64,000 nucleotides of DNA from Candidatus Enterousia sp. (GCA_045593685.1 JAZNXD010000018.1:41247-105246), one strand, 5' to 3'. Counted from the stretch's first letter, positions 1-55,820 are shown. Notes: generated from the sequence alone by a model not told the origin. Made by a program: numbers and translations.

Positions 1-1
1 C

Positions 2-1441: not shown

Positions 1442-1444
1442 AAA

Positions 1445-2059: not shown

Positions 2060-2084
2060 AAACACCGGGATTTACCGGTGTTTT

Positions 2085-2774
2085 TTAAAACAAATCAAAA
2101 TCATTGATAAAGGCTTCTCGTAACACAGAATCAACTTCGGCCCCGCTCAGCCCCGCCCCACGCAGATAAATAATTTGATTTTCCTTTGGTGCATAAAGAC
2201 CGGCGCTGTGATCGGCACAAATTGGTTCTGCCGAAATATTTTGTGCCGGCAAAAATTTAATTTTTGCGCCCGCATCCACCATTGCCGAAAAGGCAATATC
2301 TGACCTGCATTTTTCACAATCCTTGTTAATAATTGCTGTGCCACTTAATTTTGAATTTGAATTTTTCCCGGCCAAAATCTTGTTTTTAATTAAAATAGCC
2401 GTGTTTTTATATAAATGATATGCCTTGCAATCATAATTTAATTCGGAATTGTTTTCCAATCTAACGTGTCCCAAAATTTCAGAATTTTTCCCGGCGTTTT
2501 TAATAAAAATGTTCAAAAAAGCCGGCAAATTATTTTTTACATCAATACTGACACAGACCTGTTGATTTTCCGCACCGACCGAAATTTCCAAATTATTTTC
2601 GCCCACAATTTCACCAACGTAAATAATATGAACCGGTAAATCATATTTTTTATTTATTGGCGCATAATCCAATGTTGATAAATCGGGACAATACTTACCA
2701 TCACGGAAAACGATAGTTTCCGCTGCAAAAGTTTTTATGTTGAATTCGTTCCACATGTATGACATATTACACAC
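2085..2774 (-). CDS. SufB/SufD-family domain protein, short (229 aa) C-terminal-type fragment
   Basis: The C-terminus IIYLRGAGLSGAEVDSVLREAFINDFD matches the conserved SufB/SufD C-terminal region (FYLRSRG...). There is no room for an N-terminal part before ychF. Confidence 0.5.
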   Translation of the reverse strand: MCNMSYMWNEFNIKTFAAETIVFRDGKYCPDLSTLDYAPINKKYDLPVHIIYVGEIVGENNLEISVGAENQQVCVSIDVKNNLPAFLNIFIKNAGKNSEILGHVRLENNSELNYDCKAYHLYKNTAILIKNKILAGKNSNSKLSGTAIINKDCEKCRSDIAFSAMVDAGAKIKFLPAQNISAEPICADHSAGLYAPKENQIIYLRGAGLSGAEVDSVLREAFINDFDLF

Positions 2775-2792
2775 ATTATAAAGGATTTAATT

Positions 2793-3872
2793 ATGGGATT
2801 CAACTGTGGTATTGTTGGGTTGCCCAATGTTGGCAAATCAACACTGTTTAATGCATTAACACAAAGTGCCGCCGCCGATGCGCAAAATTATCCATTTTGT
2901 ACAATCGAACCAAATACGGGTCGTGTTGTTGTGCCGGATTCAACCTTGCATGAATTGGCACGTGTTGCCGGGTCCCAGAAAATTTTACCAACCCAACTGG
3001 AAATTGTTGATATCGCGGGCTTGGTTCGTGGCGCATCAACGGGCGAAGGTTTGGGGAATAAATTCCTGGGCAATATTTTATCAACCGACGCGATTATTCA
3101 TGTTGTTCGCTGTTTTGAAAATGATGATATTGTGCACGTCCATGGTAAAATTGACCCATTATCAGATATTGAAACAATCGAAACCGAATTAATGTTGGCC
3201 GACCTGGAAAGCATTGATAAACAAATTAAAAACCTGGAAAAGAAAGCCCGCGGTTTGGACAAAGATGCAATAAAATTATTGGCCGATGCAAATACGATAA
3301 AGGCAAATTTGGAAAAATCAATTCCTGCGCGCCTGGGTGATGTTGAATCTGCACCGTTTAATTTGCTGACATCAAAACCTGTTATATATGTCTGCAACGT
3401 GGACGAAGCATCCGCCGCCACCGGAAATAAATATTCGGATTTGGTACGTGAAAAATTCGGCGCAACCAATGATGTATTGGTAATATCATCAAAAATAGAA
3501 ATGGAAATTTCGCAAATCGTTGACCCTGACGAAAGAAAAATGTTCCTGGACGATTTGGGGTTATCAGAATCCGGCCTGGACCAGGTTATCAAGACTGGAT
3601 ACAGAACGCTTGGCCTGCAAACATATTATACCATTGGCCCCAAAGAGGCACACGCCTGGACCATTACAACCGGTATGACTGCCCCCCAGGCGGCGGGAAA
3701 AATTCACACCGATTTTGAAAAGGGGTTTATCCGTGCCGAAGTAATTACGCCCGCTGACTTTATCGCCCTGGGTGGCGAAGTTGCGGTTAAAGATGCCGGA
3801 AAAATGCGCCTGGTTGGTCGTGATTATATTATGCAACCCGGCGACATTTGCCACTTTTTGTTTAATAATTAA
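2793..3872 (+). CDS. ychF: Ribosome-binding ATPase YchF
   Basis: N-terminal G1 motif GIVGLPNVGKSTLFNALT. Length 359 aa. AAAGGA ribosome-binding site upstream. Confidence 0.9.
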   Translation: MGFNCGIVGLPNVGKSTLFNALTQSAAADAQNYPFCTIEPNTGRVVVPDSTLHELARVAGSQKILPTQLEIVDIAGLVRGASTGEGLGNKFLGNILSTDAIIHVVRCFENDDIVHVHGKIDPLSDIETIETELMLADLESIDKQIKNLEKKARGLDKDAIKLLADANTIKANLEKSIPARLGDVESAPFNLLTSKPVIYVCNVDEASAATGNKYSDLVREKFGATNDVLVISSKIEMEISQIVDPDERKMFLDDLGLSESGLDQVIKTGYRTLGLQTYYTIGPKEAHAWTITTGMTAPQAAGKIHTDFEKGFIRAEVITPADFIALGGEVAVKDAGKMRLVGRDYIMQPGDICHFLFNN

Positions 3873-3924
3873 TTTAAATAAAATTGTTAAAAAAACACCG
3901 GCAAACACCGGTGTTTTTTTATTG

Positions 3925-4082
3925 AAAATTTTATGGATATAATCATAATAACAAGTGTTTCGTAACAATTTAACGAGGCGTGCAAAAAAGCCAAAAAACT
4001 TTTTGGGGACGCCTACAATGCGGTTTTTTTGCAAGAGGTTACGGCCCGTTTTCAGAACCGATTTTTATCGGTTCTTTTTTAT
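3925..4082 (+). ncRNA. Candidate small RNA in the convergent ychF/dnaG spacer, ending at its own intrinsic terminator
   Basis: The 315-nt non-coding spacer has a hairpin GGCGTgcaaaaaagcc...ACGCC. A second hairpin GAACCGATttttATCGGTTC is followed by a T6 tract at 4053-4082. Both are separate from the ychF and dnaG terminators. Confidence 0.3.
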
Positions 4083-4148
4083 GAATAAAACATTTTTATC
4101 AGGCTTGTTTGTACCCGGTGTAACAACAAATAAAAATGTTAAAAATTC

Positions 4149-4186
4149 CCGGCTTTTTTAATAATTTTGTTCAAAAAAGCCGGTGT
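4149..4186 (-). terminator. dnaG terminator (CCGGCTTTTTT...AAAAAAGCCGG)
   Basis: 11-bp stem immediately after the dnaG stop. Confidence 0.55.
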
Positions 4187-4187
4187 T

Positions 4188-5798
4188 TTATATGGAAATC
4201 AAAACTTCTAATTTTTCATTATATTTTTTTATCTCTTCATCAATGCGTTGTATTTCATCGCGCGCCGTTTCATCCCCGGCCAACAGTTGATTTGTAAATT
4301 CGCGTTTTTGCGCCCTTAATTTTTCCAAATATCTTTGCAATTTTAATGACACAATATATTTCTCTGCCGCGGTCGCATCCATATTCAAATCAGTCACCAC
4401 GCCATCGAAATCCACCCCCAATGACCCCAGGAAATCCAAATATCTTTCCGCCAATTCCGGAAAATTATTTACAATATAAACCAGGGTATTTTTCGTAATC
4501 GCATCAATGTCCGGCAATTTAATATTTGCGGCAACATCTGTTTTTTTCCACCTGTGCCACGTATTAAATTTACGCGAATTATATTCTTTTTCGAATTCTG
4601 ATTTCAAATCAGGATCTACAATTTTTTCTAATTCTTTTTTTAAAAATTTTTCTGCCTGTGCACGTCCACCCGGTGTTTTTACCAGAAATTGATTGTTAAC
4701 CATTTCCCACATATAATCAACCAGTGGCACCGCATCATCAATAATCTTGCGCATGGCCTCAATACCGCCATTTTTAAGTATTTCATCTGGATCCTTGCCA
4801 CCGGTCACAAACGCAAAACGAACATCGGATGTATCACGAATAAACGGTAGTATGATACCGCATGCGCGTGCGGCTGCCTTGCTGCCCGCTGTATCTCCAT
4901 CAAAACAAAAAGTTATGTTTCTGTTTGATTTACACAATAACGATATATGGTCTTCGGTCAGGGCCGTACCCAAAGGTGCGACTGTTTCTGCAAAGCCCGC
5001 AATTTGCATTTTTATTGCATCTATTTGCCCTTCGACGATAATGCTGCGGTTTGCGCGGTGAATACCTTCGCGTGCAAAGTTAAACCCAAAAATGGTTCTG
5101 CGTTTATGAAAAATATCTGTGTCAACTGTGTTGATATACTTTGGATCAGACCCATCCAGGGAACGTCCTGAAAACGCAACAACATTACCCTTGGCATTAA
5201 AAATCGGAAACATTAATTTATCACGGAAAAAATCATACATGCCAAATTCACCGCGACGACACAGTCCCGCATCAATCAGATATTTTGACCCCGCAAATTT
5301 ATTTGCAATTATATTATTTTTTGGTGCGTATCCCAATCTATATTTTTTTATATCATCATCCGAAAATCCCCGATTTCGTGCGTATGCCAATGCATGTGCA
5401 CCATCGGGGGTAAATAATTTTTCCATATATGTCTGACATGCTTTTTCACATATATCAAACAACTGTTCTTCACGTTTTACAATATTTGGATCACGCGGTT
5501 TATAGTCCGGCATTTTTATCCCCGCCATATCGGCCAATTCCTGGATGGCGGCGCGAAAATCCAAATTATTACGCTTCATTGTAAAGGAAACAATATCGCC
5601 CCCTTCGCCGCAACCAAAGCATTTAAAAATCCCCTTTTCTTCATTGACACAAAAACTGGGGGTTTTTTCATTGTGAAACGGACAACAACCCCAATAATTT
5701 TGTCCCTTTTTGGTCAGTGGCACCGCACGTCCCACCACGTCCAGTATCGATAAACGTGCACGCAGTTCGTCTGTAAAATTGCGGTCCAAACCTGCCAT
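4188..5798 (-). CDS. dnaG: DNA primase DnaG
   Basis: Zinc-ribbon CCPFHNEKTPSF...FKCFGCGEGGD. TOPRIM region. 536 aa. Confidence 0.9.
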   Translation of the reverse strand: MAGLDRNFTDELRARLSILDVVGRAVPLTKKGQNYWGCCPFHNEKTPSFCVNEEKGIFKCFGCGEGGDIVSFTMKRNNLDFRAAIQELADMAGIKMPDYKPRDPNIVKREEQLFDICEKACQTYMEKLFTPDGAHALAYARNRGFSDDDIKKYRLGYAPKNNIIANKFAGSKYLIDAGLCRRGEFGMYDFFRDKLMFPIFNAKGNVVAFSGRSLDGSDPKYINTVDTDIFHKRRTIFGFNFAREGIHRANRSIIVEGQIDAIKMQIAGFAETVAPLGTALTEDHISLLCKSNRNITFCFDGDTAGSKAAARACGIILPFIRDTSDVRFAFVTGGKDPDEILKNGGIEAMRKIIDDAVPLVDYMWEMVNNQFLVKTPGGRAQAEKFLKKELEKIVDPDLKSEFEKEYNSRKFNTWHRWKKTDVAANIKLPDIDAITKNTLVYIVNNFPELAERYLDFLGSLGVDFDGVVTDLNMDATAAEKYIVSLKLQRYLEKLRAQKREFTNQLLAGDETARDEIQRIDEEIKKYNEKLEVLISI

Positions 5799-8038
5799 TA
5801 CTTCTTCTTGGTTTTGTTATTAATTAACTTGATTGCGGTTTCTAAATCCGGCTGTTCACGAACAGAAACGTTTACACGGTTCGAAGATATATATGCCCCA
5901 TATCGTCCGGTCGGATAAAAGAATATCATCTTCTTTGTTTCTGGGTTTTCACCGATTTTTATTGGTTCTGCCTTTTTACCGGCATTTGCCAATAAATCAC
6001 GTGCGATTTCCAACGTTATGGTTTCAGATGTATATTGTTTTGCCGCAACATTTTTTCCACCATCTGTCACATACGGACCAAATTTTCCAACACGAAATTC
6101 AATACCACCACCCAATTCAACCGCATCTGATTTTGTGTTCTGTGCGGCGGATTCTGTGGCCTGTGCGGTTACATCAACCTTGCCCAGTTGTTTTGTATAT
6201 TTACAATCTGGGTATTTTTCACACCCAATAAAAGGACCAAACTTAGACAATTTTATACCCAACTTTGCGCCACAATCTGGACACTTATCATTACCATCGG
6301 GGAATAAATGTTTGTTCATAAATTCGTTTATTTCATCAATAATTTCGGATGTTTTAATACCGCGCGCACCATCAATCATCGCATCGGTTGGTTTCCAGAA
6401 ATTTTCCAATGCGCTAATTTTATCCTGTTTACCATTTGAAACATCGTCCAGGGTATCTTCTGTTTTTGCAGTAAAGTTTACATCAACCAAATCGGTAAAA
6501 TATTTATTCAGGTATGATGCAATAACCCATCCGCCATTTGTTGGATGGAAACGGCGTTGTTTATCCTGTTCAACATATGCGCGGTCGACAATCGTGGACA
6601 TAATTGTTGCGTATGTCGAAGGGCGCCCTATTCCCAATTCTTCCAATTTCTTAACCAGGGACGCTTCGGTATATCTGGGTGGTGCCTGGGTAAAATGTTG
6701 TTCCGGTATCAGTTCTGTAATATCAACATTATCACCAACGTTCATTGGTGGCAATTTAGATTCTTTTTTATCTTCTTCGTCATCTTTGTCTTCGGTATAG
6801 ACCTTCATAAAACCATCAAATGTACGTGTTGAACCAACGGCATGAAAGACGGCAACCTTGTTTTGTGTTTCTATATCTGCGGCAACCGAATCAAATTCTG
6901 CACATGTCATTTGGCATGCAATCGTACGTTTCCATATCAGGTCGTATAACTTTGCCTCGTCACCACTTAAATTTTTTGCGGGCGCATCAAAGTGTGTTGG
7001 TCGAATTGCTTCGTGTGCTTCCTGGGCGTTCTTGGATTTTGTTGCATAAATATTTGGTGTTTTGGGTACAAATTTTTCACCATATTCACGTGCGATAAAT
7101 CCACGTATTTCATTTACCGCATCCGCGTTCAGGTTTGTTGCGTCCGTACGCATATATGTAATCAACCCCTGTTCATACAGGTGCTGTGCGGCACTCATCG
7201 TGCGTTTGGATGCAAAGTATAATTTACGTGCTGCTTCCTGTTGCAGCGTACTGGTTGTAAATGGTGCCGCCGGCTTACGCGTGGTTTTTTTCTTGTCCAC
7301 GTTAATAACCGTGGCATTAATTTTTGGTTCACCCAATGCGGATAAAATATCGTTAATCTGTGCCTGGTTTTCAATGCTCATTTTTTCAATTTTTTGACCA
7401 TTGAATTTATTAAGCATTGCCTTGAAATCCACGGAATTTGCCGTACACATAGATTCCAGTGACCAATATTCCACCGGTTTAAAGTTTTCGATTTCTTTTT
7501 CACGGTCAACAACCAATTTTACCGCCACCGATTGCACACGTCCGGCGGACTTGCCCAAATTTCTGCGCCACAACAAAGGTGAAATTCCAAACCCAATCAG
7601 GTAATCCAACGCACGCCGCACCAGGTATGCATCCACCAAATTCTTGTCTATTTCACGTGGTTCTTCGATTGCGGCCTGGACGGCTTTTTTTGTAATTTCA
7701 TGAAAGGCCACACGATAAACTTTTTTATCTTTTAATAATCTTTTTGCCTTTAAAATATCCAACAGGTGCCATGCAATGGCCTCGCCTTCGCGATCAGGGT
7801 CGCTTGCCAAATAAACTGCATCTGCTTTTTTTAATTCGTCCGTAATCAGTTTTATTTGTTTTTCTTTGCCCGGCATAATTTGCCATTTCATTTTAAAATT
7901 ATTTTCTGTATCCACACTGCCATTTTCTGGAACCAGGTCACGCACATGACCAACCGATGCAATAACACGCCACCCTGACCCCAGGTATTTTTCTATTGTT
8001 TTTGCCTTGGATGGTGATTCCACAATTAATAAATTCAT
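5798..8038 (-). CDS. topA: DNA topoisomerase I
   Basis: Start MNLLIVESPSKAKTIEKYLG is the TOPRIM motif of type IA topoisomerases. C-terminal zinc fingers CPDCG...CEKYPDC. The stop overlaps the dnaG start by 1 nt (TAATG). Confidence 0.9.
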   Translation of the reverse strand: MNLLIVESPSKAKTIEKYLGSGWRVIASVGHVRDLVPENGSVDTENNFKMKWQIMPGKEKQIKLITDELKKADAVYLASDPDREGEAIAWHLLDILKAKRLLKDKKVYRVAFHEITKKAVQAAIEEPREIDKNLVDAYLVRRALDYLIGFGISPLLWRRNLGKSAGRVQSVAVKLVVDREKEIENFKPVEYWSLESMCTANSVDFKAMLNKFNGQKIEKMSIENQAQINDILSALGEPKINATVINVDKKKTTRKPAAPFTTSTLQQEAARKLYFASKRTMSAAQHLYEQGLITYMRTDATNLNADAVNEIRGFIAREYGEKFVPKTPNIYATKSKNAQEAHEAIRPTHFDAPAKNLSGDEAKLYDLIWKRTIACQMTCAEFDSVAADIETQNKVAVFHAVGSTRTFDGFMKVYTEDKDDEEDKKESKLPPMNVGDNVDITELIPEQHFTQAPPRYTEASLVKKLEELGIGRPSTYATIMSTIVDRAYVEQDKQRRFHPTNGGWVIASYLNKYFTDLVDVNFTAKTEDTLDDVSNGKQDKISALENFWKPTDAMIDGARGIKTSEIIDEINEFMNKHLFPDGNDKCPDCGAKLGIKLSKFGPFIGCEKYPDCKYTKQLGKVDVTAQATESAAQNTKSDAVELGGGIEFRVGKFGPYVTDGGKNVAAKQYTSETITLEIARDLLANAGKKAEPIKIGENPETKKMIFFYPTGRYGAYISSNRVNVSVREQPDLETAIKLINNKTKKK

Positions 8039-9202: not shown

Positions 9203-10969
9203 TTATTTTAATAATTCCTTCATAACTGCGGCGCATGTTCGTGCGGCCGGTCCACTGCCCCCGGCGTGTTCCGTAACAATACAAACCGCATATTTTGGAT
9301 TGTCGGTTGGTGCATATCCAACAAACAGACCATGATTTCGCATATGCCACTTTAATTGTTCATTGGTCAGAACACCTTTTTCGCGTTCTTTTTTTGAAAT
9401 GCTGCGCACCTGCGAAGTACCTGTTTTCCCGCCCATGCGTTTGCCATTAACATTAATCGCACTGCCCGATGCGGTGCCACCCTTTTTAAGAACCTGTTCC
9501 AAACCGTTCAAAACAGCATCAATATTTTTCTGTTGTAAATTCATGCTTTCGAATATTGGTCTTTGTGCGGATTTTATCAATCGTGGTACCACCTGTTTAT
9601 TAGATACGGTTCGTGCCATCATGATTGCCAATTGCAAACAATTTGTTAAAATAAATCCCTGACCGATACCGGAAATAACGGTGTCACCATGCACCCATCT
9701 GTATCCAACATTTTTTTCCTTCCAATATCTATCTGGAATAACGCCGGGCATTTCGCGTGATAAAATACCATCCATATATTTTTCGGAAAATCCCAACCTT
9801 AACGCCATTTCTTTTATCGCATCAATTCCAATACGTAATGCCACCTGATAAAAGTATATATCGCATGAATGTTTTAGCGCCCCGGCCAAATCCATTTTAC
9901 CGTGACCCTTGTGTTCCCAACAATGATATCTGCGATCGCCATAGTCCCAGTATCCCGGACAGAAAATCTTTTCACGTGGGTTTATTGCGCCCGCCTCTAA
10001 CGCGGCCAGTGCAACAACGATTTTAAACGTGGAACCCGGGGGGTAAAGTCCCTCGATTGCCTTGTTCATAAAAGGTTTTGCGATATCTTCGCGCAAACTT
10101 TCTATATATTCATCCCCATCATCTTGATGGAAAATATTTGGGTCAAAACTGGGGGTTGATACCATTGCCAAAATATCACCCGTATCAATATCCAATGCCA
10201 CACCACAACCCGATCTGTGTTGTGTCAGGGCATCGTACATAACCCTTTGTGCATTTTCATTTATGGTTGTTTGAACATTTTCCCCAATAATTGGTGCCAC
10301 ATATTGTGATTTGTCTTCACCGGTTATTCGTCCAACGGCATTGGTTATCATAACGGTTTGTCCGGACGTGCCACGCATATCGTCATCAAATCTTTTTTCC
10401 AGTCCTGTTATACCGGTTGTCAAAAAAGGTGCGTTTGGCACAGGCTTGGCGGGATCCCCAATATATCCAAAAATTTGTGCCCCGGCCGGCCCCAATTCAT
10501 AAATGCGTCTATAACCGCTTTCCACGTGCAGTCCCGGTAAATTTTTCGCCTGTAATTTTGCCAGTTTTCCCCAGTCTGTATTTTCGCTGACCAATACGGG
10601 TTGAAATTTTAATTGTTTTTTTATCTTGGCGCGAATTTTATCAATCTTTTTTTGTTTCAGATTTAATTCCACCCGAACAGTTTCAATCAATTCATCAATA
10701 TCATGTGCTTCTTCTGGGATGATATATATACGATATGTTGGCACATCTTGGGAAATTGGTGCGCCACTGCGTGACAAGATTTTTCCACGTTCGGGCATAT
10801 TAATTTGAATACGATAAGAATTATTTTCACTTTTCTTTTTGTAATCTTGATAATTAAATAATTGCATCTGTAACATACGCAACACCAACACAGATGTTAA
10901 CACCGCCCCCGCCCCCAGGAACAACGCGCTTCTTCTATCAAAGGTACGTGAAACCTCTTTGTCAATCAT
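9203..10969 (-). CDS. mrdA: Penicillin-binding protein 2 (peptidoglycan D,D-transpeptidase MrdA)
   Basis: N-terminal membrane anchor. Transpeptidase motifs STFK and KTGT. 588 aa. Confidence 0.85.
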   Translation of the reverse strand: MIDKEVSRTFDRRSALFLGAGAVLTSVLVLRMLQMQLFNYQDYKKKSENNSYRIQINMPERGKILSRSGAPISQDVPTYRIYIIPEEAHDIDELIETVRVELNLKQKKIDKIRAKIKKQLKFQPVLVSENTDWGKLAKLQAKNLPGLHVESGYRRIYELGPAGAQIFGYIGDPAKPVPNAPFLTTGITGLEKRFDDDMRGTSGQTVMITNAVGRITGEDKSQYVAPIIGENVQTTINENAQRVMYDALTQHRSGCGVALDIDTGDILAMVSTPSFDPNIFHQDDGDEYIESLREDIAKPFMNKAIEGLYPPGSTFKIVVALAALEAGAINPREKIFCPGYWDYGDRRYHCWEHKGHGKMDLAGALKHSCDIYFYQVALRIGIDAIKEMALRLGFSEKYMDGILSREMPGVIPDRYWKEKNVGYRWVHGDTVISGIGQGFILTNCLQLAIMMARTVSNKQVVPRLIKSAQRPIFESMNLQQKNIDAVLNGLEQVLKKGGTASGSAINVNGKRMGGKTGTSQVRSISKKEREKGVLTNEQLKWHMRNHGLFVGYAPTDNPKYAVCIVTEHAGGSGPAARTCAAVMKELLK

Positions 10970-27072: not shown

Positions 27073-30000
27073 TTATGCTTTTTTTACAGAAATACTTAAA
27101 GTATACCCTTCTATATCCTTGCTGTATTCACCATCACCGCAAACCATTTCAACAACCAACGCATCGCGCATAATACGTTTTTTATGCTGTTCAATCGCAA
27201 TCGCCAATGCAGGGTCTGCATTGTATGTCAACACAATGCGGTCGGATACATCCAATCCCGCCGCCTTGCGTGTATCCTGGATAAAGCGCAATGCATCATT
27301 TGCCAACCCTTCGGCCACCAGTTCTGAATTAACATCTGTATCCAGAACGACCACCGCGGTGTTATCTGGTAATGCCGCACCTGTAACACCATCGCGCATG
27401 TTCAGGCGCATTTCAAATTCGTCTGAATTTAATGTATGACCCGCGGCAATTAATTTATCGCCTGCAATTTCATAGTCCCCGCGTTTAACAGCCGGGATAA
27501 TTTCTTTTAATGCACCGCCCAAACGTGCACCAATCTTTGGTGTAATCAGGTATACAAAACTGTCCGCAACATCACCAAACGAATCTTCGAACTTAACCGA
27601 TTTAACATTTAATTCGTCTTTGATAATATCGGCGTATTCCGGCATGTTTGCACCCGCCACCGTTAACGAATTTAATGGCAAACGATTGCGCAGTTTATAT
27701 TGTTCACGCAACTGTTTTCCAACCGATACGATTGATTGCACGCGTCGCATATCTTCTACGATTTTTGTATCCACCGTACCCGCCGTTGGGAACGCTGTCA
27801 AATGTACAGATTCATCCCCGGTCAGGTTTTTATAGATATGTTCCGCGACAAACGGTGCGAACGGCGCAATCACGCGACAGAATTTTACCAATACTGTATA
27901 CAGCGTATCAAATGCCGCCTGTTCTTCATCCCAGAAACGTGCGCGCCCGCGTCTGATGTACCAGTTGTTCAGGATATCCAGGAATCGCACAAATTCTTTG
28001 ATTGCCACGTCCGGTTTATATTCATCCAGCGCATTTTTCACCACACATACCAAAACATTTAATTCGGCCAGGATATATTTATCCAACGGTGTTGTGCCAT
28101 CTGTTATTTCATGCGCGGTCACATTGCCTGCATTGGCATACAATGTAAAGAAGTGATATGCGTTCCACAGCGGTGTCTGAATTGTTTTTGTTGAATCAAC
28201 AAATACCTTGCCTTCTTTATCGACGGGCACCGGTTCCGCCTTCATAAAATTCGACCCCAGTATATATAAACGCACGGCATCTGCGCCATATTGTTCAATT
28301 TGTTCGCTTGGGTCAACAAAGTTCCGCAATGATTTCGAGAATTTTTTCTTATTCTCGTCCACCACCATACCGTTTGCAGACACGGCCCTGAACGCAGGCT
28401 TATCAAACAACGCCGTCGCCAATACCATCAGCGCATAGAACCAACCACGTGTTTGGTCCTGGCCCTCTATAATATAGTCCGCCGGAAATGTCGCCGCAAA
28501 GCGTTCTGCGTTTTCAAATGGATAGTGCAGTGACGCCCATGGCATAGAACCACTTTCCACCCAGCAATCCAAAACATCTGTTATACGCGTCCAACCATCC
28601 TTGGTCAGTTTATCCAGTGTTGGGCGATGCAAATCATCAATTTTCACACCAAAGAATTCTTCTAATTCTGCGATTGACCCGAATACTTTGTATTCACCGT
28701 CCTTTTCCCAAATTGGCAAAGGCATCCCCCAGAAACGATTTCGTGAAATCGACCACGGGCGTGCATTTTCAATCCACGAACGGAAACGTTCCCCGGCACT
28801 TGTCCAATTAACCAATGCATTATTTGCCAATAATTTGTCTTTAATTTTTGGCACATCGATATACCAAGAATCCGTTGCGCGATAAATTAATTTTTCTTTG
28901 GATCTGTCACCAAACGGATAACTGTGTTTGTATTGTTCTTTTTTGACCAATCGTCCATTTGTTTTCAGCCAATCCAAAATAGCGGGCGTCGCCGCAAAGA
29001 TATTTTGTCCCGCAAAATCCACAACCGTTTCATCAAAATTGCCATAGTCATCCACATTTAACAGTACCGGGAATTTTGCATCAATATTTTTTGCCGCCCA
29101 AAAGTCGTCCGCCCCATACGCCGGCGCAATGTGTACAATACCCGTACCGTCAGAATCCGAAACATAGTCCGCCGGTATTACCTGGAATAATAATTCGGAC
29201 CCGCCCGCATAATATGGGAACAGCGGTGTATAGTGCATCCCGACCAAATCTGCCCCCTTAACAGAGCCAATCTGGGTTGCGTTTGCGAATTGTTTTTCGT
29301 ATGCCGCCAGGCGCGAAGCAGCAACAATATAAATCGCGCCGTCTGCATCCTGCATACGCACATATTCCATGTTGGGATTTACCGCCAACGCAGAATTTGC
29401 CGGCAACGTCCATGGCGTAGTTGTCCATGCAATCGCGCGGTCGCCATTTTCCAATTCAAACCAAACCGTTACCGCATCGTCAACAATTTCGCGATAGTCA
29501 CTGGATGCCTCGGAATTTGACACAACCGTACCATTAACCCAGTCATATGGATTCACGCTGTAATCTTTGTACAACAGACCCTTTTCATACAGCGACTTTA
29601 ATGTCCACAACATGGATTCCATATAGTTTTTATTCATGGTCTTGTAACCATATTCATCACCAATATCGACCCAGCGTCCCATGCGCGTAATAAAACGATT
29701 CCACTCGTTTGCATATGTCATAACATCGGTTCTGCACATATCACAGAACGCCGAAATGCCGTCACTTGCAACAATGTCTTTGGCTGATTTTCCCTGTTTT
29801 TTTTCAACGGAATTTTCCGCCGGCAACCCGTGGCAATCCCACCCCAGTTCGCGACGTACAAACCGACCGTTCATTGTCTGGAAACGACCAATCATATCTT
29901 TTACCACCGACACACCCAAATGTCCCCAGTGTGGTGTTCCATTGGCAAAGGGTGGACCGTCATAGAAAGAAAACGGATGTCCCTGTTTTGTTTGCTCCAA

Positions 30001-30096
30001 CGACTTATGAAATGTATTATTTTCGCGCCAATATTCCAACACCTGCTGTTCCAATTCAGGAAAGTTTGCACGTGGGTCTGTTTTTGGGTATGCCAT
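27073..30096 (-). CDS. ileS: Isoleucine--tRNA ligase, type 2 (eukaryote-like)
   Basis: FYDGPPFANGTPHWGHL HIGH-region typical of type-2 IleS. KMSKS region. 1007 aa. Confidence 0.9.
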   Translation of the reverse strand: MAYPKTDPRANFPELEQQVLEYWRENNTFHKSLEQTKQGHPFSFYDGPPFANGTPHWGHLGVSVVKDMIGRFQTMNGRFVRRELGWDCHGLPAENSVEKKQGKSAKDIVASDGISAFCDMCRTDVMTYANEWNRFITRMGRWVDIGDEYGYKTMNKNYMESMLWTLKSLYEKGLLYKDYSVNPYDWVNGTVVSNSEASSDYREIVDDAVTVWFELENGDRAIAWTTTPWTLPANSALAVNPNMEYVRMQDADGAIYIVAASRLAAYEKQFANATQIGSVKGADLVGMHYTPLFPYYAGGSELLFQVIPADYVSDSDGTGIVHIAPAYGADDFWAAKNIDAKFPVLLNVDDYGNFDETVVDFAGQNIFAATPAILDWLKTNGRLVKKEQYKHSYPFGDRSKEKLIYRATDSWYIDVPKIKDKLLANNALVNWTSAGERFRSWIENARPWSISRNRFWGMPLPIWEKDGEYKVFGSIAELEEFFGVKIDDLHRPTLDKLTKDGWTRITDVLDCWVESGSMPWASLHYPFENAERFAATFPADYIIEGQDQTRGWFYALMVLATALFDKPAFRAVSANGMVVDENKKKFSKSLRNFVDPSEQIEQYGADAVRLYILGSNFMKAEPVPVDKEGKVFVDSTKTIQTPLWNAYHFFTLYANAGNVTAHEITDGTTPLDKYILAELNVLVCVVKNALDEYKPDVAIKEFVRFLDILNNWYIRRGRARFWDEEQAAFDTLYTVLVKFCRVIAPFAPFVAEHIYKNLTGDESVHLTAFPTAGTVDTKIVEDMRRVQSIVSVGKQLREQYKLRNRLPLNSLTVAGANMPEYADIIKDELNVKSVKFEDSFGDVADSFVYLITPKIGARLGGALKEIIPAVKRGDYEIAGDKLIAAGHTLNSDEFEMRLNMRDGVTGAALPDNTAVVVLDTDVNSELVAEGLANDALRFIQDTRKAAGLDVSDRIVLTYNADPALAIAIEQHKKRIMRDALVVEMVCGDGEYSKDIEGYTLSISVKKA

Positions 30097-30274: not shown

Positions 30275-30303
30275 TTGCAATTTGTATTTTATGTAAATAT
30301 AAT
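30275..30303 (+). promoter_or_regulatory. Sigma70-type promoter TTGCAA-N17-TATAAT for leader/HTH cassette A
   Basis: -35 TTGCAA at 30275-30280 and -10 TATAAT at 30298-30303, 17 nt apart. The same hexamers occur at the paralogous locus B. Confidence 0.6.
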
Positions 30304-30339
30304 GCATATGCATCGGAACAATCCCGGTGTGGGGTATAA

Positions 30340-30481
30340 GAACCTCTCCAAGATGTCTGGCAAGACATAAAACTACCTCCAACCCTGGTTGGAGGGCCGG
30401 GATATATATAAATAAACGGCACTATTCTTGGATAGTTCTTAACCTCCAACCGCTTTTGAAATTCAAATGCGGTTTCTTTAT
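30340..30481 (+). promoter_or_regulatory. Structured 5' leader A (attenuator/riboswitch-like)
   Basis: Hairpin at 30353-30368, then a 7-nt linker. Stem CCTCCAACC (30376-30384) pairs with GGTTGGAGG (30387-30395). A 46-nt spacer contains a small hairpin. ACCTCCAACC (30442-30451) overlaps the terminator stem AACCGC...GCGGTT followed by a T tract (30448-30481). The architecture is identical at locus B. Confidence 0.6.
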
Positions 30482-30502
30482 ATGGAAACGCGGGGTAAAT
30501 CA

Positions 30503-30688
30503 ATGAATATCGGCCATGCAATAGAACGTATTCGTATTTCTGAAAATATACCATTAAATCAAATGTGTGACATACTGGGGCTGACATCGGAAATGGATTA
30601 TCATAAAATACGTACGGGCATGGTTGCCCCAACAATATATCAACAAATAATGGTTGTTATGAACACGCGTAAACCATTGGAAATATAA
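30503..30688 (+). CDS. Small XRE-family HTH transcriptional regulator (61 aa), paralog A
   Basis: GGGG ribosome-binding site 9 nt upstream. HTH LNQMCDILGLTSEMDYHKIRTG. About 35% identical to the 38879..39064 product, with the same length. Confidence 0.6.
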   Translation: MNIGHAIERIRISENIPLNQMCDILGLTSEMDYHKIRTGMVAPTIYQQIMVVMNTRKPLEI

Positions 30689-30717: not shown

Positions 30718-30793
30718 TGGTGCCGGTGATAGGACTTGAACCTACGACCCCCTCATTACGAATGAGATGCTCTACCAGCTGAGCTACACCGGC
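30718..30793 (-). tRNA. tRNA-Thr (anticodon CGU)
   Basis: Cloverleaf. Acceptor GCCGGTG/CACCGGC. Anticodon loop UUCGUAA. T-loop TTCAAGT. CCA is encoded. Confidence 0.9.
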
Positions 30794-30970: not shown

Positions 30971-31456
30971 TTAATGTTCCTTGCCATTGTAATGATTGTT
31001 CAAATGTCGGGTTAAAACCTGTTTCATTTGTGCAATGATTTTTTGCCGCAAATTTTTGGGTGTATCATATGGCAAAAAGTCAGATGCGTTTTCCGACATT
31101 TGTTTCGCAAAACGTTTCTGAGAATCTTGTATTGCATCTTTTGCTGGTATTTTATATGGGTCAATATAAGGTTTTCCCATGGCTTTATTGTTTGCTGCGA
31201 TATATATTTCATAAGTGGTGTTTTTATGACAATCTTCGTCCCACCAATCCGCGTCGTCCAAAAGAACAAAGCGTTTTATATCGGGTTTGTATTCATATAT
31301 AGATGTGTAAGTATCGCCATCATGGCGTACGCTATACTTTCCAAAAGTATATGACCAGCCATCAAAAATTCCAGTAAATCTTTCTTTTTCTTCTTTTTTT
31401 ACGACATCGTGTGTTGCCAATTCATAATAAATACTTCTTTTTGTGCTTTCCTTCAT
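30971..31456 (-). CDS. Hypothetical protein (161 aa)
   Basis: Open reading frame directly downstream of mnmG on the same strand. No recognisable motifs. Confidence 0.45.
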   Translation of the reverse strand: MKESTKRSIYYELATHDVVKKEEKERFTGIFDGWSYTFGKYSVRHDGDTYTSIYEYKPDIKRFVLLDDADWWDEDCHKNTTYEIYIAANNKAMGKPYIDPYKIPAKDAIQDSQKRFAKQMSENASDFLPYDTPKNLRQKIIAQMKQVLTRHLNNHYNGKEH

Positions 31457-34772: not shown

Positions 34773-35318
34773 TTATACTTTGCGAATACTAAATTCGCAA
34801 CCGCAATAATTCTGCCGATAAAAATCAGATTCGCGATTTATTTGCACACGTAAATTTTCATCCCATTTAATCGGCATATATGATAAATCGTTGCACATCT
34901 TAATAGCCGAATCATCCACCTGGGGTTGACTTTTATGACGTGATACACCCAATACACTTGCGATTGCATTAAAGCCATTATCACGTGCGAATTTTACCGC
35001 GCGACGAAATCTGTATTCAAAGCACAGTGAACAACGTGCCCCGCGTTCGGGCACGTCTTCAAATCCGCGCACGGCATCGCGCCATGCATCATGGTCATAT
35101 TCCAGAACCGCGTATTTTGCCCCAACACTTTCACAGTATTTAATCTGTTCGTGCATACGTTTGGTATATTCCGATTCTGGAAAGATATTGGGGTTATAGA
35201 ACAGAACAATAAAATCTTCTATGCCATCGATTGCACCATCTGCCAACTGTTTTATGGCGCCCGCACTGCACGGTGCACAACAAGACAATAATACAACGCG
35301 TAAATTTTTATCTGACAT
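34773..35318 (-). CDS. queH: Epoxyqueuosine reductase QueH (DUF208)
   Basis: LLSCCAPCS N-terminal Cys motif plus C-terminal CGCEFS. Confidence 0.75.
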   Translation of the reverse strand: MSDKNLRVVLLSCCAPCSAGAIKQLADGAIDGIEDFIVLFYNPNIFPESEYTKRMHEQIKYCESVGAKYAVLEYDHDAWRDAVRGFEDVPERGARCSLCFEYRFRRAVKFARDNGFNAIASVLGVSRHKSQPQVDDSAIKMCNDLSYMPIKWDENLRVQINRESDFYRQNYCGCEFSIRKV

Positions 35319-35859
35319 GTTGTAACAGTTTTGTCATGGCCACCGGCATTTTTCCCGTCGCCGTCGGATAAATTTGCTTTAAATCTTTGTTAACAACGAT
35401 ATCGTTTTCTGTTAATTCGTGCCATGTTATCGTTGTGGCCACCGGAACAGGTCTTGCGGCACTTGCATTTGTTTTCAGTCCTATGCTATACCGTTTATGG
35501 GTTCCTTTTTTTATTGCAGGCACGTTCATCTTATCATTGGTTATCACAGGTTCAAAAGATGCGTGTGGTGTATTTTGTTTGATTTTTTTTGCATTTGTTA
35601 TTTCCTCTGCAATCCACACAGGCAACATCTCGCGTTCCAGGAAATGTGTTGCAACACCTGTTCGTATGTTATAGTTTTCCTTCAATCTTACAATTTCGAT
35701 TCTGTAACAATCCCCCGTTGTTCCCACAATTTTTTTAAGCGTTTCAACCGCCTCTTTTACATTTAAAATTTCGCCTTCGGACATATATTTATTGGCATGT
35801 ACACGTACAACAAATTTTTGCCGAATTCCAAATTCTTCTTTTGTTAATCTGGTATCCAT
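35308..35859 (-). CDS. Hypothetical protein (183 aa) between metG and queH
   Basis: Open reading frame overlapping the queH start by 11 nt. No recognisable motif. Confidence 0.5.
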   Translation of the reverse strand: MDTRLTKEEFGIRQKFVVRVHANKYMSEGEILNVKEAVETLKKIVGTTGDCYRIEIVRLKENYNIRTGVATHFLEREMLPVWIAEEITNAKKIKQNTPHASFEPVITNDKMNVPAIKKGTHKRYSIGLKTNASAARPVPVATTITWHELTENDIVVNKDLKQIYPTATGKMPVAMTKLLQHVR

Positions 35860-37983: not shown

Positions 37984-38493
37984 ATGAAAACATTAAATCA
38001 AATTGATAAAAATACCATTATTTATATTGTAAACGAAATAACACGCCATCATGGCATAAAAAATGTACCACCGGTAAAGTTGGGCCGGTTAACATATTTA
38101 CTGTGGTTGGAATATGCATCGTTACAGCCCGGATACGAATTTCCCAAAAATTCACCGATGGCAAACATGCGTTTTATAAATTATGAACGCGGCCCGGCCG
38201 AGGTTCTAAGTTCCGACAATTATTACGAAATTCAATCGGAAATTATATCCGGTCGTGTTCCGAACTTTTCGCAAACAATGTTCGCTGCAAACGAAAATGT
38301 ACGCCTGAATCACGCATTTGAAACGGTGCGTAATTGTTATTCGAACCATCGTACCGAAGATTTATGTTATTTTATTCAGCATACATTACCGACCTGTTTG
38401 TTCAAGCCTGTGATTGCGCCATTGCAAATAAATAATCAAGAATTTTTGCAAGAGGTTAAATCATTTATCAAGCATCGTCACAAATTGAAATAA
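37984..38493 (+). CDS. Hypothetical protein resembling SocA/Panacea domain (DUF4065, phage-associated GepA-like)
   Basis: VKLGRLTYLLWLEYA ... NYERGPAEVL matches the Panacea pattern KLxKLLY...F.a..GPV. It sits next to tRNA-Val. Confidence 0.4.
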   Translation: MKTLNQIDKNTIIYIVNEITRHHGIKNVPPVKLGRLTYLLWLEYASLQPGYEFPKNSPMANMRFINYERGPAEVLSSDNYYEIQSEIISGRVPNFSQTMFAANENVRLNHAFETVRNCYSNHRTEDLCYFIQHTLPTCLFKPVIAPLQINNQEFLQEVKSFIKHRHKLK

Positions 38494-38528: not shown

Positions 38529-38605
38529 TGGTGGGTGGTATTGGACTCGAACCAACGACCTTTACGATGTCAACGTAACGCTCTAACCAACTGAGCTAAC
38601 CACCC
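38529..38605 (-). tRNA. tRNA-Val (anticodon GAC)
   Basis: Cloverleaf. Acceptor GGGTGGT/ACCACCC. Anticodon loop UUGACAU. T-loop TTCGAGT. CCA is encoded. Confidence 0.9.
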
Positions 38606-38648: not shown

Positions 38649-38678
38649 TTGCAAATGATATTTGTTATGGGATATAAT
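38649..38678 (+). promoter_or_regulatory. Sigma70-type promoter TTGCAA-N18-TATAAT for leader/HTH cassette B
   Basis: -35 at 38649-38654 and -10 at 38673-38678, the same hexamers as locus A. Confidence 0.55.
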
Positions 38679-38687
38679 ACCGATTGT

Positions 38688-38860
38688 AATAGGGTACCTA
38701 TTATGCGAGGCTGGAAATCTCGCGACACACTCGCCTGCGCAGGCGTTAATTGCTCCAACCCGTGGTTGGAGGTCGGTTAATATATTGAATACCCGAGCCA
38801 CGAAGTGTCGTGATTTCTACCTCCAACCACCCTATTCCAAGGTGGTTTTTCTTTTAATCT
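38688..38860 (+). promoter_or_regulatory. Structured 5' leader B (paralog of leader A)
   Basis: Palindrome AATAGGgtaCCTATT at 38688-38702. Hairpins GCGAG/CTCGC and CGCCTGCGCAGGCG at 38732-38745, then a 7-nt linker. Stem CTCCAACC (38753-38760) pairs with GGTTGGAGG (38764-38772). A 46-nt spacer contains hairpin CACGAagtgTCGTG. ACCTCCAACC (38819-38828) overlaps terminator AACCACC...GGTGGTT, followed by a long T tract. Confidence 0.6.
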
Positions 38861-38878
38861 TTTTTTTGGGGGGTGGAA

Positions 38879-39064
38879 ATGACTTTGGGGTATGAAATTG
38901 AATATATTCGTACATTGCGAAATTTATCAATAATTGACGTTTGTAATGCAATGGGGGTTTCGGAATCAGAATACCGTAATATCATCTATAATCATACACG
39001 CCCCACAACATATCAATTAATCATGTTTATATCTGTGGCGCATCATCACATTAATTCTGTATAA
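38879..39064 (+). CDS. Small XRE-family HTH transcriptional regulator (61 aa), paralog B
   Basis: GGGGGGTGG ribosome-binding site. HTH LSIIDVCNAMGVSESEYRNI. Confidence 0.6.
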   Translation: MTLGYEIEYIRTLRNLSIIDVCNAMGVSESEYRNIIYNHTRPTTYQLIMFISVAHHHINSV

Positions 39065-39065
39065 A

Positions 39066-39090
39066 AAAGCCGGCATTTGCCGGCTTTTTC
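39066..39090. terminator. Bidirectional terminator GCCGGCatttGCCGGC between HTH-B and accC
   Basis: Perfect palindrome flanked by an A tract and a T tract. Confidence 0.65.
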
Positions 39091-40446
39091 TTATTTGTTT
39101 GCCAAAAAATTTTCCAACCATTTATTATCAAATTTTAACTGTTTAACATCTTTATTTGACAACAGTTTCCTTTGCAAAGGTATGGTTGTTTTTACGCCTT
39201 CGATAACAAATTCATCCAACGCACGTTGGGCGCGCATGATGCATGCCGGTCTGTTCTGTGCATGGACAATTAATTTTGCAACCATGGAATCATAGGTCGG
39301 CGGAATTGTATATCCCGTATAAACCGCACTGTCCACGCGAACACCCAATCCACCCGATGGCGCATACAGTGAAATTTTTCCCGGATTTGGAACAAAGGTT
39401 TCCGGATCTTCGGCATTAATACGAAATTCAATCGCATGACCATTTGGAATAACATTTGATTGATTGTATCCCAACTTTTCACCGCCTGCGATACGAATTT
39501 GTTCACGCACCAAATCCACACCGTATACCATTTCGGTCACCGGGTGTTCCACCTGCAAACGCGTATTCATTTCCAGAAAATAGAATTTGCCATCTTCGAA
39601 CATGAATTCAAAAGTTCCGGCATTTGTATATCCCATTTTCTTGGCCGCCGATTTACAGACTTCAATCATATCGTCGCGCTGTTTTTGTGATAAAACCGCG
39701 GCGGGACATTCTTCCATAACTTTTTGATTGCGTCTTTGCAGTGAACAGTCGCGTTCACCAAAGATAACAACATTGCCATGTTTGTCCCCCAGTACCTGAA
39801 ATTCAATATGTCGTGGGTGTGTTAACAGTTTTTCCATATACAGCGTATCATCACCAAACGCAGATTTTGCTTCGTTCTTGGTTAATTGATAAGCCTCGCT
39901 CATTTCATCGGCGCCCATAACGGGTCGCATTCCGCGTCCGCCACCACCGGCGGCCGCCTTTAACATAACCGGATATCCAATTTTTTCGGCCACATCCAAT
40001 GCATGTTCCAATGATTCCAACGCACCATCAGACCCCGGAACAACCGGCAATCCACACTCAATCGCGGTGCGTTTTGCATTAACCTTGTCGCCCATTTTTG
40101 TAATCATGTCGGGCGCCGGGCCAATCCAAATCATACCATGTTGTTCAACCTTTTGTGCAAAATCCGCCCGTTCGGACAAGAATCCATACCCCGGATGAAT
40201 TGCATCCGCATTGGTCAGCAACGCCGCCGTTAAAATAGCAGATTCGTTCAAATAAGAATCACGTGCCGGCGCCGGTCCGATACATACCGACTCGTCGGCC
40301 AGTTGTACATGCATTGCATCGCGATCGGCCGTTGAATACACCGCAACGGTTCGAATACCCATATCACGACATGCGCGAATAACACGCAGGGCAATTTCCC
40401 CACGGTTGGCAATTAAAACTTTTTTGATTTGCGACATATTATTCAA
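39091..40446 (-). CDS. accC: Acetyl-CoA carboxylase biotin carboxylase subunit
   Basis: ATP-grasp fold. [24 protein letters not shown]-terminus. 451 aa. Confidence 0.9.
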
Positions 40447-54698: not shown

Positions 54699-55520
54699 TC
54701 AATCGTTTAACCAATCTTGGTCGGGACATAAATCTCTTCGTGTCAGATATTGCTTTAATTCTTGTATTGTACCATTTGTTCCCTTGCCTCCATCATAATG
54801 TACAACCTGACCATTGTTAAATAATTTACAACAAAAGTACCATGTTGTTGGTTTTTTTGAATCTGCCTCTATCGCAATAAGGCATTTTCTTGAATGTAAA
54901 TCACAGTCAAAATATCTGTTTTTTTCGCCCCCGATAGACCGAAATATTTGATGATTAAAACAGCGATTGTACAGTTCTTCTTGTAATTCTTTCTCGGTTA
55001 TTTTGCGTTTGAAATGCCCATCTTGACCAAGCTTTTGCCAGACTTTATCTTTGCATATTATTGTTTCGGTTGAAACATCATAGTCAGTGGCGCCATATCG
55101 ATTTGTATGTTCGATTGTATGGAGCCTACCTTCGGATTCACAAGCTTCACCAACAACGGGACTGCAAACAGTATGTTCTGGATTTTGTTCACATTCTTTT
55201 AGATGCTTGTCTTGTTCTTTAATCAGTTGAACTGCTAAATCTGCGCATCCTGCATAAATATCGTCATCTTTCATTCCTGTGTTGCACTGAAATAAGGCAT
55301 ACATACAATTCAGGCCGAATTCGTATGCAGAATATCCCGCAGATGGTTTCCATATGTTATTCCTAAAATCATCAAAACAATCCATTGCTTTTTTTGGTAA
55401 TATCTTGCTTTGCAGGGTTTGGGCAACGGCACGTGGGTACCAATAAACAAAGTCTTCCATATCTATTGCGTAACAATTAAAGGCAAACAAACACGTACAA
55501 ACAAATAAAAAAAATCTCAT
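54699..55520 (-). CDS. Secreted Cys-rich hypothetical protein (273 aa)
   Basis: Signal peptide MRFFLFVCTCLFAFNCYA. About 16 Cys. Very strong ribosome-binding site GGGGGGGAG. Preceded closely by a terminator hairpin. Confidence 0.5.
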   Translation of the reverse strand: MRFFLFVCTCLFAFNCYAIDMEDFVYWYPRAVAQTLQSKILPKKAMDCFDDFRNNIWKPSAGYSAYEFGLNCMYALFQCNTGMKDDDIYAGCADLAVQLIKEQDKHLKECEQNPEHTVCSPVVGEACESEGRLHTIEHTNRYGATDYDVSTETIICKDKVWQKLGQDGHFKRKITEKELQEELYNRCFNHQIFRSIGGEKNRYFDCDLHSRKCLIAIEADSKKPTTWYFCCKLFNNGQVVHYDGGKGTNGTIQELKQYLTRRDLCPDQDWLND

Positions 55521-55532
55521 TATCTCCCCCCC

Positions 55533-55568
55533 ATATAAAAACAGACCGCCACAGGATATCTGGCGGTC
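55533..55568 (-). terminator. Intrinsic terminator (GACCGCCA...TGGCGGTC plus a T tract on the minus strand) 3 nt upstream of the Cys-rich gene's ribosome-binding site
   Basis: 8-bp stem with a 9-nt loop, followed on the minus strand by TTTTTAT. Confidence 0.55.
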
Positions 55569-55820
55569 GGGGAGTTGGTAATCAGTATATCATTGATTCT
55601 GTCGTTTTCGGGTTGCCCCTATTGTATGACGAACAGCCCCCCGACTTATACAGTCAGGGATAAATAACGATACAAAACCACAGGAAGCATATCGTATTAT
55701 TACATGTTCTTTGATTCTGTACCGGATATACTGGGCTACCACAGCCCCGAACCCATATCCCTATGGATTCAAGACAAATTTTATCATAAATACGTAAAAA
55801 AACAAATTATATTATCCTTC

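Follow-up and report, generated by a model that had tools for sequence, protein, structure and literature searches.

A 64,000-nucleotide (nt) stretch of DNA from Candidatus Enterousia sp. (GCA_045593685.1 JAZNXD010000018.1:41247-105246), called the window below, was analysed around two small open reading frames (ORFs), ORF A (30503..30688, + strand) and ORF B (38879..39064, + strand), each encoding a minimal XRE-fold protein (mini-XRE) of 61 amino acids (aa). Both ORFs were found to end an undescribed module of promoter, structured RNA, intrinsic terminator and small ORF, which is conserved in reduced gut Alphaproteobacteria. The RNA family is new and has unusual features, and its general kind is known. 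Covariation and folding indicate that the family is real and under selection, and there is about an even chance that the RNA is a transcription-attenuating leader gating the small ORFs. Ca. Enterousia belongs to the order Rs-D84, uncultured gut symbionts with genomes below 1 Mb and approximately 90% coding sequence (PMC12306168); given such genomes, non-coding sequence that has survived is likely to be functional. The related loci, designated with the prefix L, came from metagenome-assembled genomes labelled Alphaproteobacteria or Candidatus Enterousia.

A structured RNA family upstream of small ORFs

Alignment of the regions upstream of ORFs A and B revealed a conserved non-coding stretch, which consisted of a perfect hairpin (CCUCCAACC-N3-GGUUGGAGG), a second CCUCCAACC approximately 48 nt further on, and a short G+C-rich hairpin with a U-run. 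The motif CCTCCAACC had five matches in the 64-kb window against 0.26 expected, all confined to the sites of modules A and B. Approximately 200 nt upstream of the ATG in both modules, a sigma-70-type promoter could be recognized: TTGCAA-17-TATAAT in module A (30275..30303, + strand; 10 of 12 consensus positions) and TTGCAA-18-TATAAT in module B (38649..38678, + strand), the latter conserved in all B loci. An identical promoter to that of module A precedes the homologous RNA in L001. The conserved 5' end of the RNA begins directly past the -10 hexamer.

Two covariance models were used, R1, built from nine copies, and R2, a broader model. Copy A (30303..30482, + strand, approximately 178 nt) scored 112.4 bits with R1 (E 2.7e-32) and 111.4 bits with R2, and copy B (38679..38855, + strand, 177 nt) scored 196.6 and 168.9 bits, respectively. 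A third, divergent copy of approximately 240 nt was detected on the - strand (55775..55536) by R2 (38.6 bits, E 3.9e-7, filters off). Its terminator (55568-55537) is followed by the Shine-Dalgarno (SD) sequence GGGGGGGAG (55532-55524) and by its cargo, a 273-aa ORF (54699..55520, - strand) with a hydrophobic N-terminus/signal peptide and no Pfam family.

Single-sequence folds of all three copies were more stable than shuffled controls, with minimum free energies (MFE) of -66.6 kcal/mol for A (z = -6.7), -61.4 kcal/mol for B (z = -3.7) and -92.5 kcal/mol for the third copy (z = -5.1), whose fold has the shared architecture. This MFE architecture was the same in seven of seven diverse copies and comprises a 5' hairpin (P1), a four-way junction in which P2 closes P3, P4 and P5, and a terminator directly after P2. 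In copy A, a P1 hairpin and a long-range P2 around P3, P4 and P5 could be seen, with P4 at 30376-30395 (CCUCCAACC-CUG-GGUUGGAGG), the P5 loop at 30399-30419, the second CCUCCAACC at 30443-30451 and the intrinsic terminator at 30448-30481. The corresponding parts of copy B were P4 at 38753-38771 (CUCCAACC-CGU-GGUUGGAG), the P5 loop at 38777-38791 (UUAAUAUAUUGAAUA), the second CCUCCAACC at 38820-38828 and the terminator at 38825-38855. A promoter and an intrinsic terminator accompanied every copy.

Across 25 copies, in an alignment fitted to the model, 88.1% of cells were paired compared to 33-45% when the partners were slid, changes on both sides were seen in 40 of the 49 pairs, and the covariation score was 0.516 compared to 0.185 +/- 0.011 for shuffles. 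Compensations inspected by hand in P2b agree with this (GACAC/GUGUC, GAUAG/CUAUC, CAGUAG/CUACUG, CAACAG/CUGUUG and CCAAG/CUUGG). Conservation was highest at four places, namely the stem of P4, the loop of P5 (GAAUAUAYUGAAUAA), a joiner rich in A, and ACCUCCAACC ahead of the terminator. Nucleotide identity of the B-type RNA across genomes was 72-98%, compared to protein identities of 46-74% for B and 91-96% for AccC and to a number of synonymous substitutions per site (dS) of 1.3 to >2 in the ORF.

Using R1, the RNA was found directly upstream of every mini-XRE gene for which the context was fetched, including members only 28-35% identical to B; the positive family members were A, all B orthologs, P0113 (28% identity), P0115, P0164 and P0170. 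The earlier note on this DNA had proposed comparing gene neighbourhoods, and the constant upstream partner proved to be this RNA; tRNA adjacency held for tRNA-Val beside B and was missing at several other family members. L254 and L259 carried one copy each, L260 two in tandem (4562-4979) and L255 three in tandem (2428-3002). In L001, an additional copy that has a promoter and a terminator of its own but no ORF (9588-9802) lies directly upstream of module A. In these tandem arrays (L001, L260 and L255), each copy has its own promoter and terminator, and one mini-XRE ORF lies downstream. The ORF-less copy of L001 is missing from the window; an identical promoter/P1 stretch of approximately 70 nt in both L001 copies would allow deletion by recombination.

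Other cargo was also found behind the RNA, namely unrelated 56-65-aa ORFs (L003, L010), another type of XRE protein, 75 aa in length (L103), secreted proteins (at L104 and behind the third copy of the window), other ORFs (L080, L266) and an ABC transporter (L267). At all 13 independent loci, an ORF start on the same strand or a further copy followed within approximately 10-100 nt, for which the chance probability is about 1e-4. In L003, mreB and gpsA are separated by a module of approximately 410 bp (9840-10255) that comprises a promoter, a variant of the RNA and an unrelated ORF of 65 aa. This module is missing from the otherwise near-identical L002 (9830-9845), no target-site duplication is visible, and in L010 queH is followed by a homologous module (1340-1541, minus strand). 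On two IMG/VR contigs, RNA copies were located at the edges of predicted prophages (L266, 12015-12198; L267, 8439-8616), just past DNA methyltransferase, PLD-like nuclease and lysis genes and directly before non-phage ORFs including the ABC transporter.

No RNA copy matched Rfam 15 (4227 families): in the window the gathering threshold was reached by tRNAs only, copies A and B gave nothing credible at E <= 10, and seven other copy-bearing loci gave nothing at E <= 0.05. Two-piece transfer-messenger RNA, 6S RNA, signal recognition particle RNA and T-box were rejected, as ARAGORN and Rfam placed none of them at these sites. A consistent partner for a P5-loop pseudoknot could not be found by eye. 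Metagenome and viral contigs were also scanned with the pattern CTCCRACC-N2-9-GGTTGGAG, which gave at least 120 matches in each, mostly by chance; covariance-model filtering recognized 4/120 true copies in the metagenome and 0/120 in the viral set, among the matches listed. A narrower pattern hit seven viral contigs, three of which had true copies, all at prophage-host edges.

Alternative pairing and possible modes of action

On sequence grounds the RNA belongs with RNA leaders, being a conserved and covarying 5' leader that lies co-oriented and directly upstream of ORFs, with a predicted terminator and a mutually exclusive alternative pairing. The alternative involves three segments. Segment 2 (GGUUGGAG) is complementary to both CUCCAACC copies, the second of which (segment 3) overlaps the terminator stem. 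Complementarity between segments 2 and 3 was retained in 96.3% of cells and was perfectly Watson-Crick in 23 of the 25 copies. Variant triples had changed together, reading CCCGACC/GGUCGGG/CCCGACC in L003 and L010, and CCCUGAC (55659-55653), GUCGGGG (55645-55639) and CCCCGACC (55572-55565) in the third copy of the window. Segment 1 tolerates G.U pairs, and P4 loops range in length from 3 to 8 nt.

The gap from the end of the U-run to the ATG measures 21-24 nt in modules A and B and contains a G-rich SD (GGGG at 30492-30495 for ORF A; GGGGGGUGG at 38868-38876 for ORF B). Between the terminator and the ATG, the SD was the only element found and no promoter was present; since only a U-run and an SD precede the ATG, the ORFs appear to lack a promoter of their own and, for that reason, would be expressed only by read-through of the terminator. 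In the proposed mechanism, the module combines a strong sigma-70 promoter, a structured RNA of approximately 175 nt, an intrinsic terminator and an SD/ORF 21-24 nt past the U-tract. By default, segments 1 and 2 would pair as P4 and the terminator would form, so that the ORF is off and a short RNA is released. Alternatively, segments 2 and 3 would pair as an antiterminator and transcription would proceed into the ORF. Termination is taken as the default because the terminator conformer was 2-26 kcal/mol more stable in silico. A trans-acting factor would favour the antiterminator; the putative signal would most likely be a protein or RNA recognizing the invariant P4 or P5 loop, and less likely a metabolite. 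One such leader family might thereby control a small set of genes, chiefly those for mini-XRE proteins, in genomes below 1 Mb.

The attenuating leader is favoured because the three segments can pair in alternative ways, the ORFs lack a promoter and co-orientation is strict; the switching itself and its trigger are inferred. Several observations weigh against it. In silico, the antiterminator conformer falls 2-26 kcal/mol short of the terminator conformer in stability, and switching would therefore need an external factor. The covariation between segments 2 and 3 derives from only two or three independent variant lineages, and the covariation alignment, as stated, was fitted to the model. The highest conservation lies in a stem and a hairpin loop and not in the junctions, which is atypical for metabolite riboswitches. 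Finally, the self-promoted tandem copies (L001, L260, L255) suit stand-alone small RNA (sRNA) genes at least equally well.

This last point leads to a serious rival, rated as rather unlikely, in which the RNAs are mainly trans-acting sibling sRNAs and the ORF is either a leaky read-through passenger or the protein partner of the RNA; its logic would resemble the CI RNA pairing of satellite phage P4 (seqB with seqA and seqC) or the layout of type III toxin-antitoxin systems. A trans-acting role or an RNA-protein partnership is kept alive by the self-promoted tandem and ORF-less copies. The ORF-less copy of L001 has its own promoter and a strong terminator, and the many compensated changes that separate it from copy A indicate long maintenance; arrays of two (L260) and three (L255) copies point the same way. 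P4 and the 15-nt P5 loop are near-invariant in primary sequence, as expected of a surface recognized by RNA or protein; the compact terminated fold far exceeds the others in stability; and CCUCC-type motifs resemble anti-SD seeds. However, these motifs are paired in the predicted fold, and sites complementary to the P5 loop numbered 10 in the window against 6.7 +/- 2.7 expected, which is the chance level. All 13 loci had a co-oriented ORF or a further copy directly downstream; neither relatives of ToxN-type nucleases among the downstream proteins nor short tandem repeats were present. A P5-loop target inside ORF B was rejected, as it arises from the palindromic codons of EIEYIR and is not conserved in orthologs.

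A leader peptide could likewise be dismissed. Orthologs do not share the 25-codon ORF that spans P4 in leader B and read ATG CGA GAT TAG, and leader A has one of five codons. The SD behind the RNA (30492-30495, 38868-38876, 55524-55532 and homologous loci) is almost always a G-run, GGGG or GGGGG, and not GGAGG. In the outer P2 helix, GGGG also serves as the 5' strand and is paired to CUCC from segment 3. In read-through transcripts, CUCC segments could thus mask the SD as well.

Comparison with known systems revealed partial resemblances. The trp leader is an attenuator with 1:2, 2:3 and 3:4 pairings. Like attenuators and riboswitch platforms, the RNA is a long structured 5' leader with an intrinsic terminator just ahead of the ORF; as in those systems, its middle segment can pair upstream or, with a partner inside the terminator stem, downstream, copies may stand in tandem, and the leader precedes several different genes in a regulon-like manner. 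Unlike them, the RNA family has no conserved leader peptide, and its leader mini-ORFs differ among orthologs. It also departs from them in having no Rfam 15 match or known aptamer, in that conservation lies in a stem and hairpin loop and not in junctions, and in that each tandem copy has its own promoter.

In the immunity system of satellite phage P4, seqB of the CI RNA pairs with seqA and seqC and causes premature termination. The A-B-A' arrangement, with a middle segment complementary to both flanks, is similar here, and so is a constitutive leader whose termination decides downstream expression. Unlike the phage system, the module has no phage context, sequence similarity or downstream replication genes; it occupies conserved chromosomal sites in reduced genomes, and all three segments lie in one compact RNA. 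Type III toxin-antitoxin systems (ToxIN, CptIN) share the order of promoter, non-coding RNA, read-through-limiting terminator and protein gene, with the RNA possibly in tandem. Their processed repeat is approximately 36 nt long, whereas the RNA described here is a 175-nt four-way junction with its own promoter that stands singly in the window, and its cargos are 61-aa XRE-fold or unrelated proteins rather than ToxN/AbiQ-type endoribonucleases, with no match in PADLOC. The CcsR1-4 'cuckoo' RNAs of Rhodobacter carry CCUCCUCCC motifs and are associated with a DUF1127 gene. As multi-copy, structured and sometimes tandem RNAs whose motifs are C-rich and CCUCC-like, coupled to a tiny protein gene in an alphaproteobacterium, these sibling sRNAs are comparable. 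Unlike them, the present RNA lies upstream of the ORF rather than in a 3' untranslated region, its motifs are paired and not in loops, its fold and sequence differ, and it had no match in Rfam, including the alphaproteobacterial sRNA families.

The mini-XRE proteins

Both 61-aa ORFs described in the earlier note were present on the + strand, and their sequences identify them as true paralogs. BLASTP of the pair aligned 52 positions with 19 identities (37%) and one gap (E 6e-10), and end-to-end identity was approximately 32%; the reported homology at about 35% was thus upheld, and its gapless alignment was not. The XRE-type assignment held for the fold and not for Pfam sequence membership. For HTH_3 (PF01381), B scored 21.3-21.4 bits against a cut-off of 23, ORF A had no Pfam match, and E < 0.01 was reached by 4 of 42 family members for HTH_3 and 2 of 42 for HTH_31.

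The AlphaFold (AF2) model, for which 12 homologs were used as input, had a predicted local distance difference test (pLDDT) value of 94.8 and four helices (3-13, 18-25, 29-36 and 44-54). The Foldseek search suggested by the earlier note returned XRE-type domains; the top PDB matches were all XRE/Cro domains (template modelling score 0.7-0.8, root-mean-square deviation 0.9-2.4 Å, 52-58 residues), and the neighbours included DdrO-N, HipB, SinR-N, CapH-N, restriction-modification C-proteins, 434 Cro and P22 c2. The model and these matches support an XRE/Cro fold for A and B and back the conserved helix-turn-helix (HTH) core that had been claimed. From the predicted fold alone, we infer that the proteins may bind DNA.

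A profile search against 1.84 billion cluster representatives gave 124 clusters with E < 1e-3, of which 55 had E < 1e-10, so that the family of ~60-aa proteins holds approximately 120 clusters at 50% identity. Nearly all members are 59-68 aa long, none has a name or a Pfam domain, and the hosts are uncultured gut Alphaproteobacteria near Ca. Enterousia. Near-invariant residues were E8, R11, C22, Y32 and Q46; the mean net charge was -0.3, and the recognition helix (helix 3) begins acidic (E-x-E-Y). As in XRE/Cro HTH proteins (Pfam HTH_3), the mini-XRE forms a four-helix bundle in which helices 2 and 3 make up the helix-turn-helix. It differs from them in scoring under the Pfam thresholds, in being a bare domain without dimerisation or sensor extension, in a net charge of approximately zero with acidic residues opening helix 3, and in its own signature (E8, R11, C22, Y32, P42 and Y-Q-x-I-M). 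Among B orthologs, third codon positions varied most and the ratio of nonsynonymous to synonymous substitution rates (dN/dS) was 0.17-0.45, with dS from 1.3 to saturation (>2); the ORF is thus coding, and the dN/dS values indicate that the B gene is maintained by selection.

A protein of this fold raises a very improbable alternative, namely that the inverted repeat CTCCAACC-N-GGTTGGAG and a third half-site downstream form a DNA operator at which a mini-XRE dimer autoregulates by roadblock, the apparent RNA structure being secondary. XRE/Cro proteins, the PDB neighbours among them, usually bind palindromes as dimers, one repeat is common to A and B, and it is invariant where other stems vary. 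Nevertheless, its half-site spacer of 3-8 nt is incompatible with a fixed dimer geometry, and the segment 1 variants CTCCGACC, CTCTAACC and CCCTGAC retain pairing only through G.U, which is a property of RNA and not of DNA. The repeat lies at approximately +70 to +90 within the transcript and, unchanged or co-varied, also occurs before non-HTH genes and at loci without an HTH gene; moreover, the family is nearly uncharged (mean -0.3) and its recognition helix starts acidic. The co-varied segments, the G.U tolerance and the variable P4 loop therefore argue for an RNA-level three-segment switch over a DNA operator.

Gene callers were found to translate parts of the RNA, giving a 73-aa version of ORF A (extension 30467-30502) and spurious ORFs at 30327..30506 and 38649-38780. 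For ORF A, the family alignment favours the ATG at 30503 over the start chosen by the gene caller (30467), a position within the terminator. Database N-termini reading 'MQSSNLQPP' or 'MRWGIPGVGYKNLSK' (P0043, P0056, P0060, P0066, P0084 and P0089) are artefacts of RNA translation, the 'MQSSNLQPP' extension being translated segment 3.

Genomic context and meaning of the modules

Module A lies between ileS (27073..30096, - strand) and tRNA-Thr(CGT) (30718..30793, - strand; ARAGORN and Rfam), a placement shared by the one related genome carrying A. The tRNA stands outside the module just past ORF A and is convergent with it, likewise in L001. Module B has tRNA-Val(GAC) (38529..38605, - strand; ARAGORN and Rfam) just ahead of it in divergent orientation, and accC (39091..40446, - strand) behind it. 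Both tRNA neighbours had been reported correctly; of the further placements, A upstream of ileS has to be corrected to divergent from it, and B does not lie upstream of accC but past its 3' end, convergent. ORF B and accC share a bidirectional intrinsic terminator (39064..39089, both strands), and weak Rfam matches to sRNAs and leaders at this place are terminator matches.

The palindromic TTGCAA at 38649-38654 is the -35 element of both RNA B (+) and the divergent tRNA-Val promoter, which runs on the minus strand from 38654 down to 38627 (-10 at 38632-38627). Every B locus retains these back-to-back promoters, so that initiation at the two may be coupled or in competition. The 169-aa neighbour gene (37984..38493) had been labelled Panacea-like, a label without support: there was no DUF4065/PF13274 match, nothing in Pfam at E <= 1 and nothing credible in PADLOC, PHROGs or NCBIfam, and an AF2 model from the single sequence (pLDDT 36.9) was too poor for fold comparison.

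The earlier note had read the two ORFs as typical of remnants of integrated elements or of addiction/defence modules. It is very improbable that A and B are leftover regulators of degraded tRNA-integrated elements or antitoxin-like parts of such modules, even though mobile DNA does occur nearby. In related strains, the 3' half or 3' end of tRNA-Val(GAC) is an attachment site of islands. The L004 island (1-5700) carries HsdM, AAA_14 and a 475-aa integrase, and the tRNA-Val(GAC) there is interrupted and invisible to ARAGORN; the L005 island (1-5660, approximately 9 kb, on the same contig as L001) carries a resolvase, a 540-aa integrase and TPR/Slam proteins and abuts the tRNA-Val 3' end. Some RNA copies at predicted-prophage edges (L266, L267), the related RNA and small-ORF module of L003 that is missing from the otherwise near-identical L002, and the nearest structural neighbours, which include HipB, CapH and restriction-modification C-proteins, would also fit a mobile origin.

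Both islands, however, lie on the 3' side of tRNA-Val, while the RNA and ORF B lie on its 5' (promoter) side, outside them. The interval between metG and tRNA-Val is variable, holding the 169-aa gene, GIY-YIG genes or islands. B and its RNA keep their place beside tRNA-Val whether or not a genome has an island, even where protein identity has fallen to 46-54%. B orthologs (46-98% identity) were always beside tRNA-Val(GAC), mostly between it and accC, and in one lineage with an inverted accC block, B and the RNA remained with tRNA-Val and metG. This position has held while AccC stayed 91-96% identical and B only 46-74%, and the gene itself is under purifying selection. Mini-XRE relatives were absent from IMG/VR, INPHARED phages and PLSDB plasmids, and none was found in PADLOC. 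As the earlier note had said, the window holds neither a toxin nor an integrase partner: behind ORF A comes tRNA-Thr, behind ORF B the terminator and the convergent accC, and PADLOC gave no match. Adjacency to a tRNA is not family-wide, since L254, L255, L257 and L259 have no tRNA near the family member.

Further variation was observed around these sites. A 161-aa ORF between tRNA-Thr and mnmG (gidA) at 30971-31456 (- strand), without a family in Pfam, PADLOC, PHROGs or NCBIfam, represents an indel beside a tRNA, as it is missing from the same position in L001. Between metG and queH, a 183-aa ORF without a Pfam family (35308-35859, - strand) corresponds in more distant relatives to shorter syntenic ORFs of 102-108 aa. 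In L006 (5290-5810) and L007-L009 (approximately 6340-6660), a small GIY-YIG gene lies inside inverted repeats (gtcattcctgcgcaggcaggaat / attcctgcctgcgcaggaatgac); the flanking duplication of caaagaaatttaagattgcaaataatatttgtt indicates insertion in the tRNA-Val/RNA B promoter region, and by its sequence the unit looks like a mobile element. In other relatives, a GIY-YIG gene lies between B and accC.

The 64-kb window thus retains three copies of a structured RNA of 175-240 nt. Gene callers at present translate parts of it, which is a consequence for annotation. If the attenuator reading is true, the RNA would represent a new regulatory RNA class with good computational support. Tentatively, and with somewhat less than an even chance, the RNA may represent a new type of leader that senses a signal, as an orphan riboswitch or through an RNA-binding factor dedicated to it, at the core of a small Rs-D84/Enterousia regulon. 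On this tentative reading, the triple segments CUCCAACC/GGUUGGAG/CUCCAACC together with the CCCGACC class would yield at least two orthogonal switching classes. In these genomes of less than 1 Mb with few regulators, the mini-XRE proteins would be the main outputs of such a regulon, possibly feeding back on the RNA.

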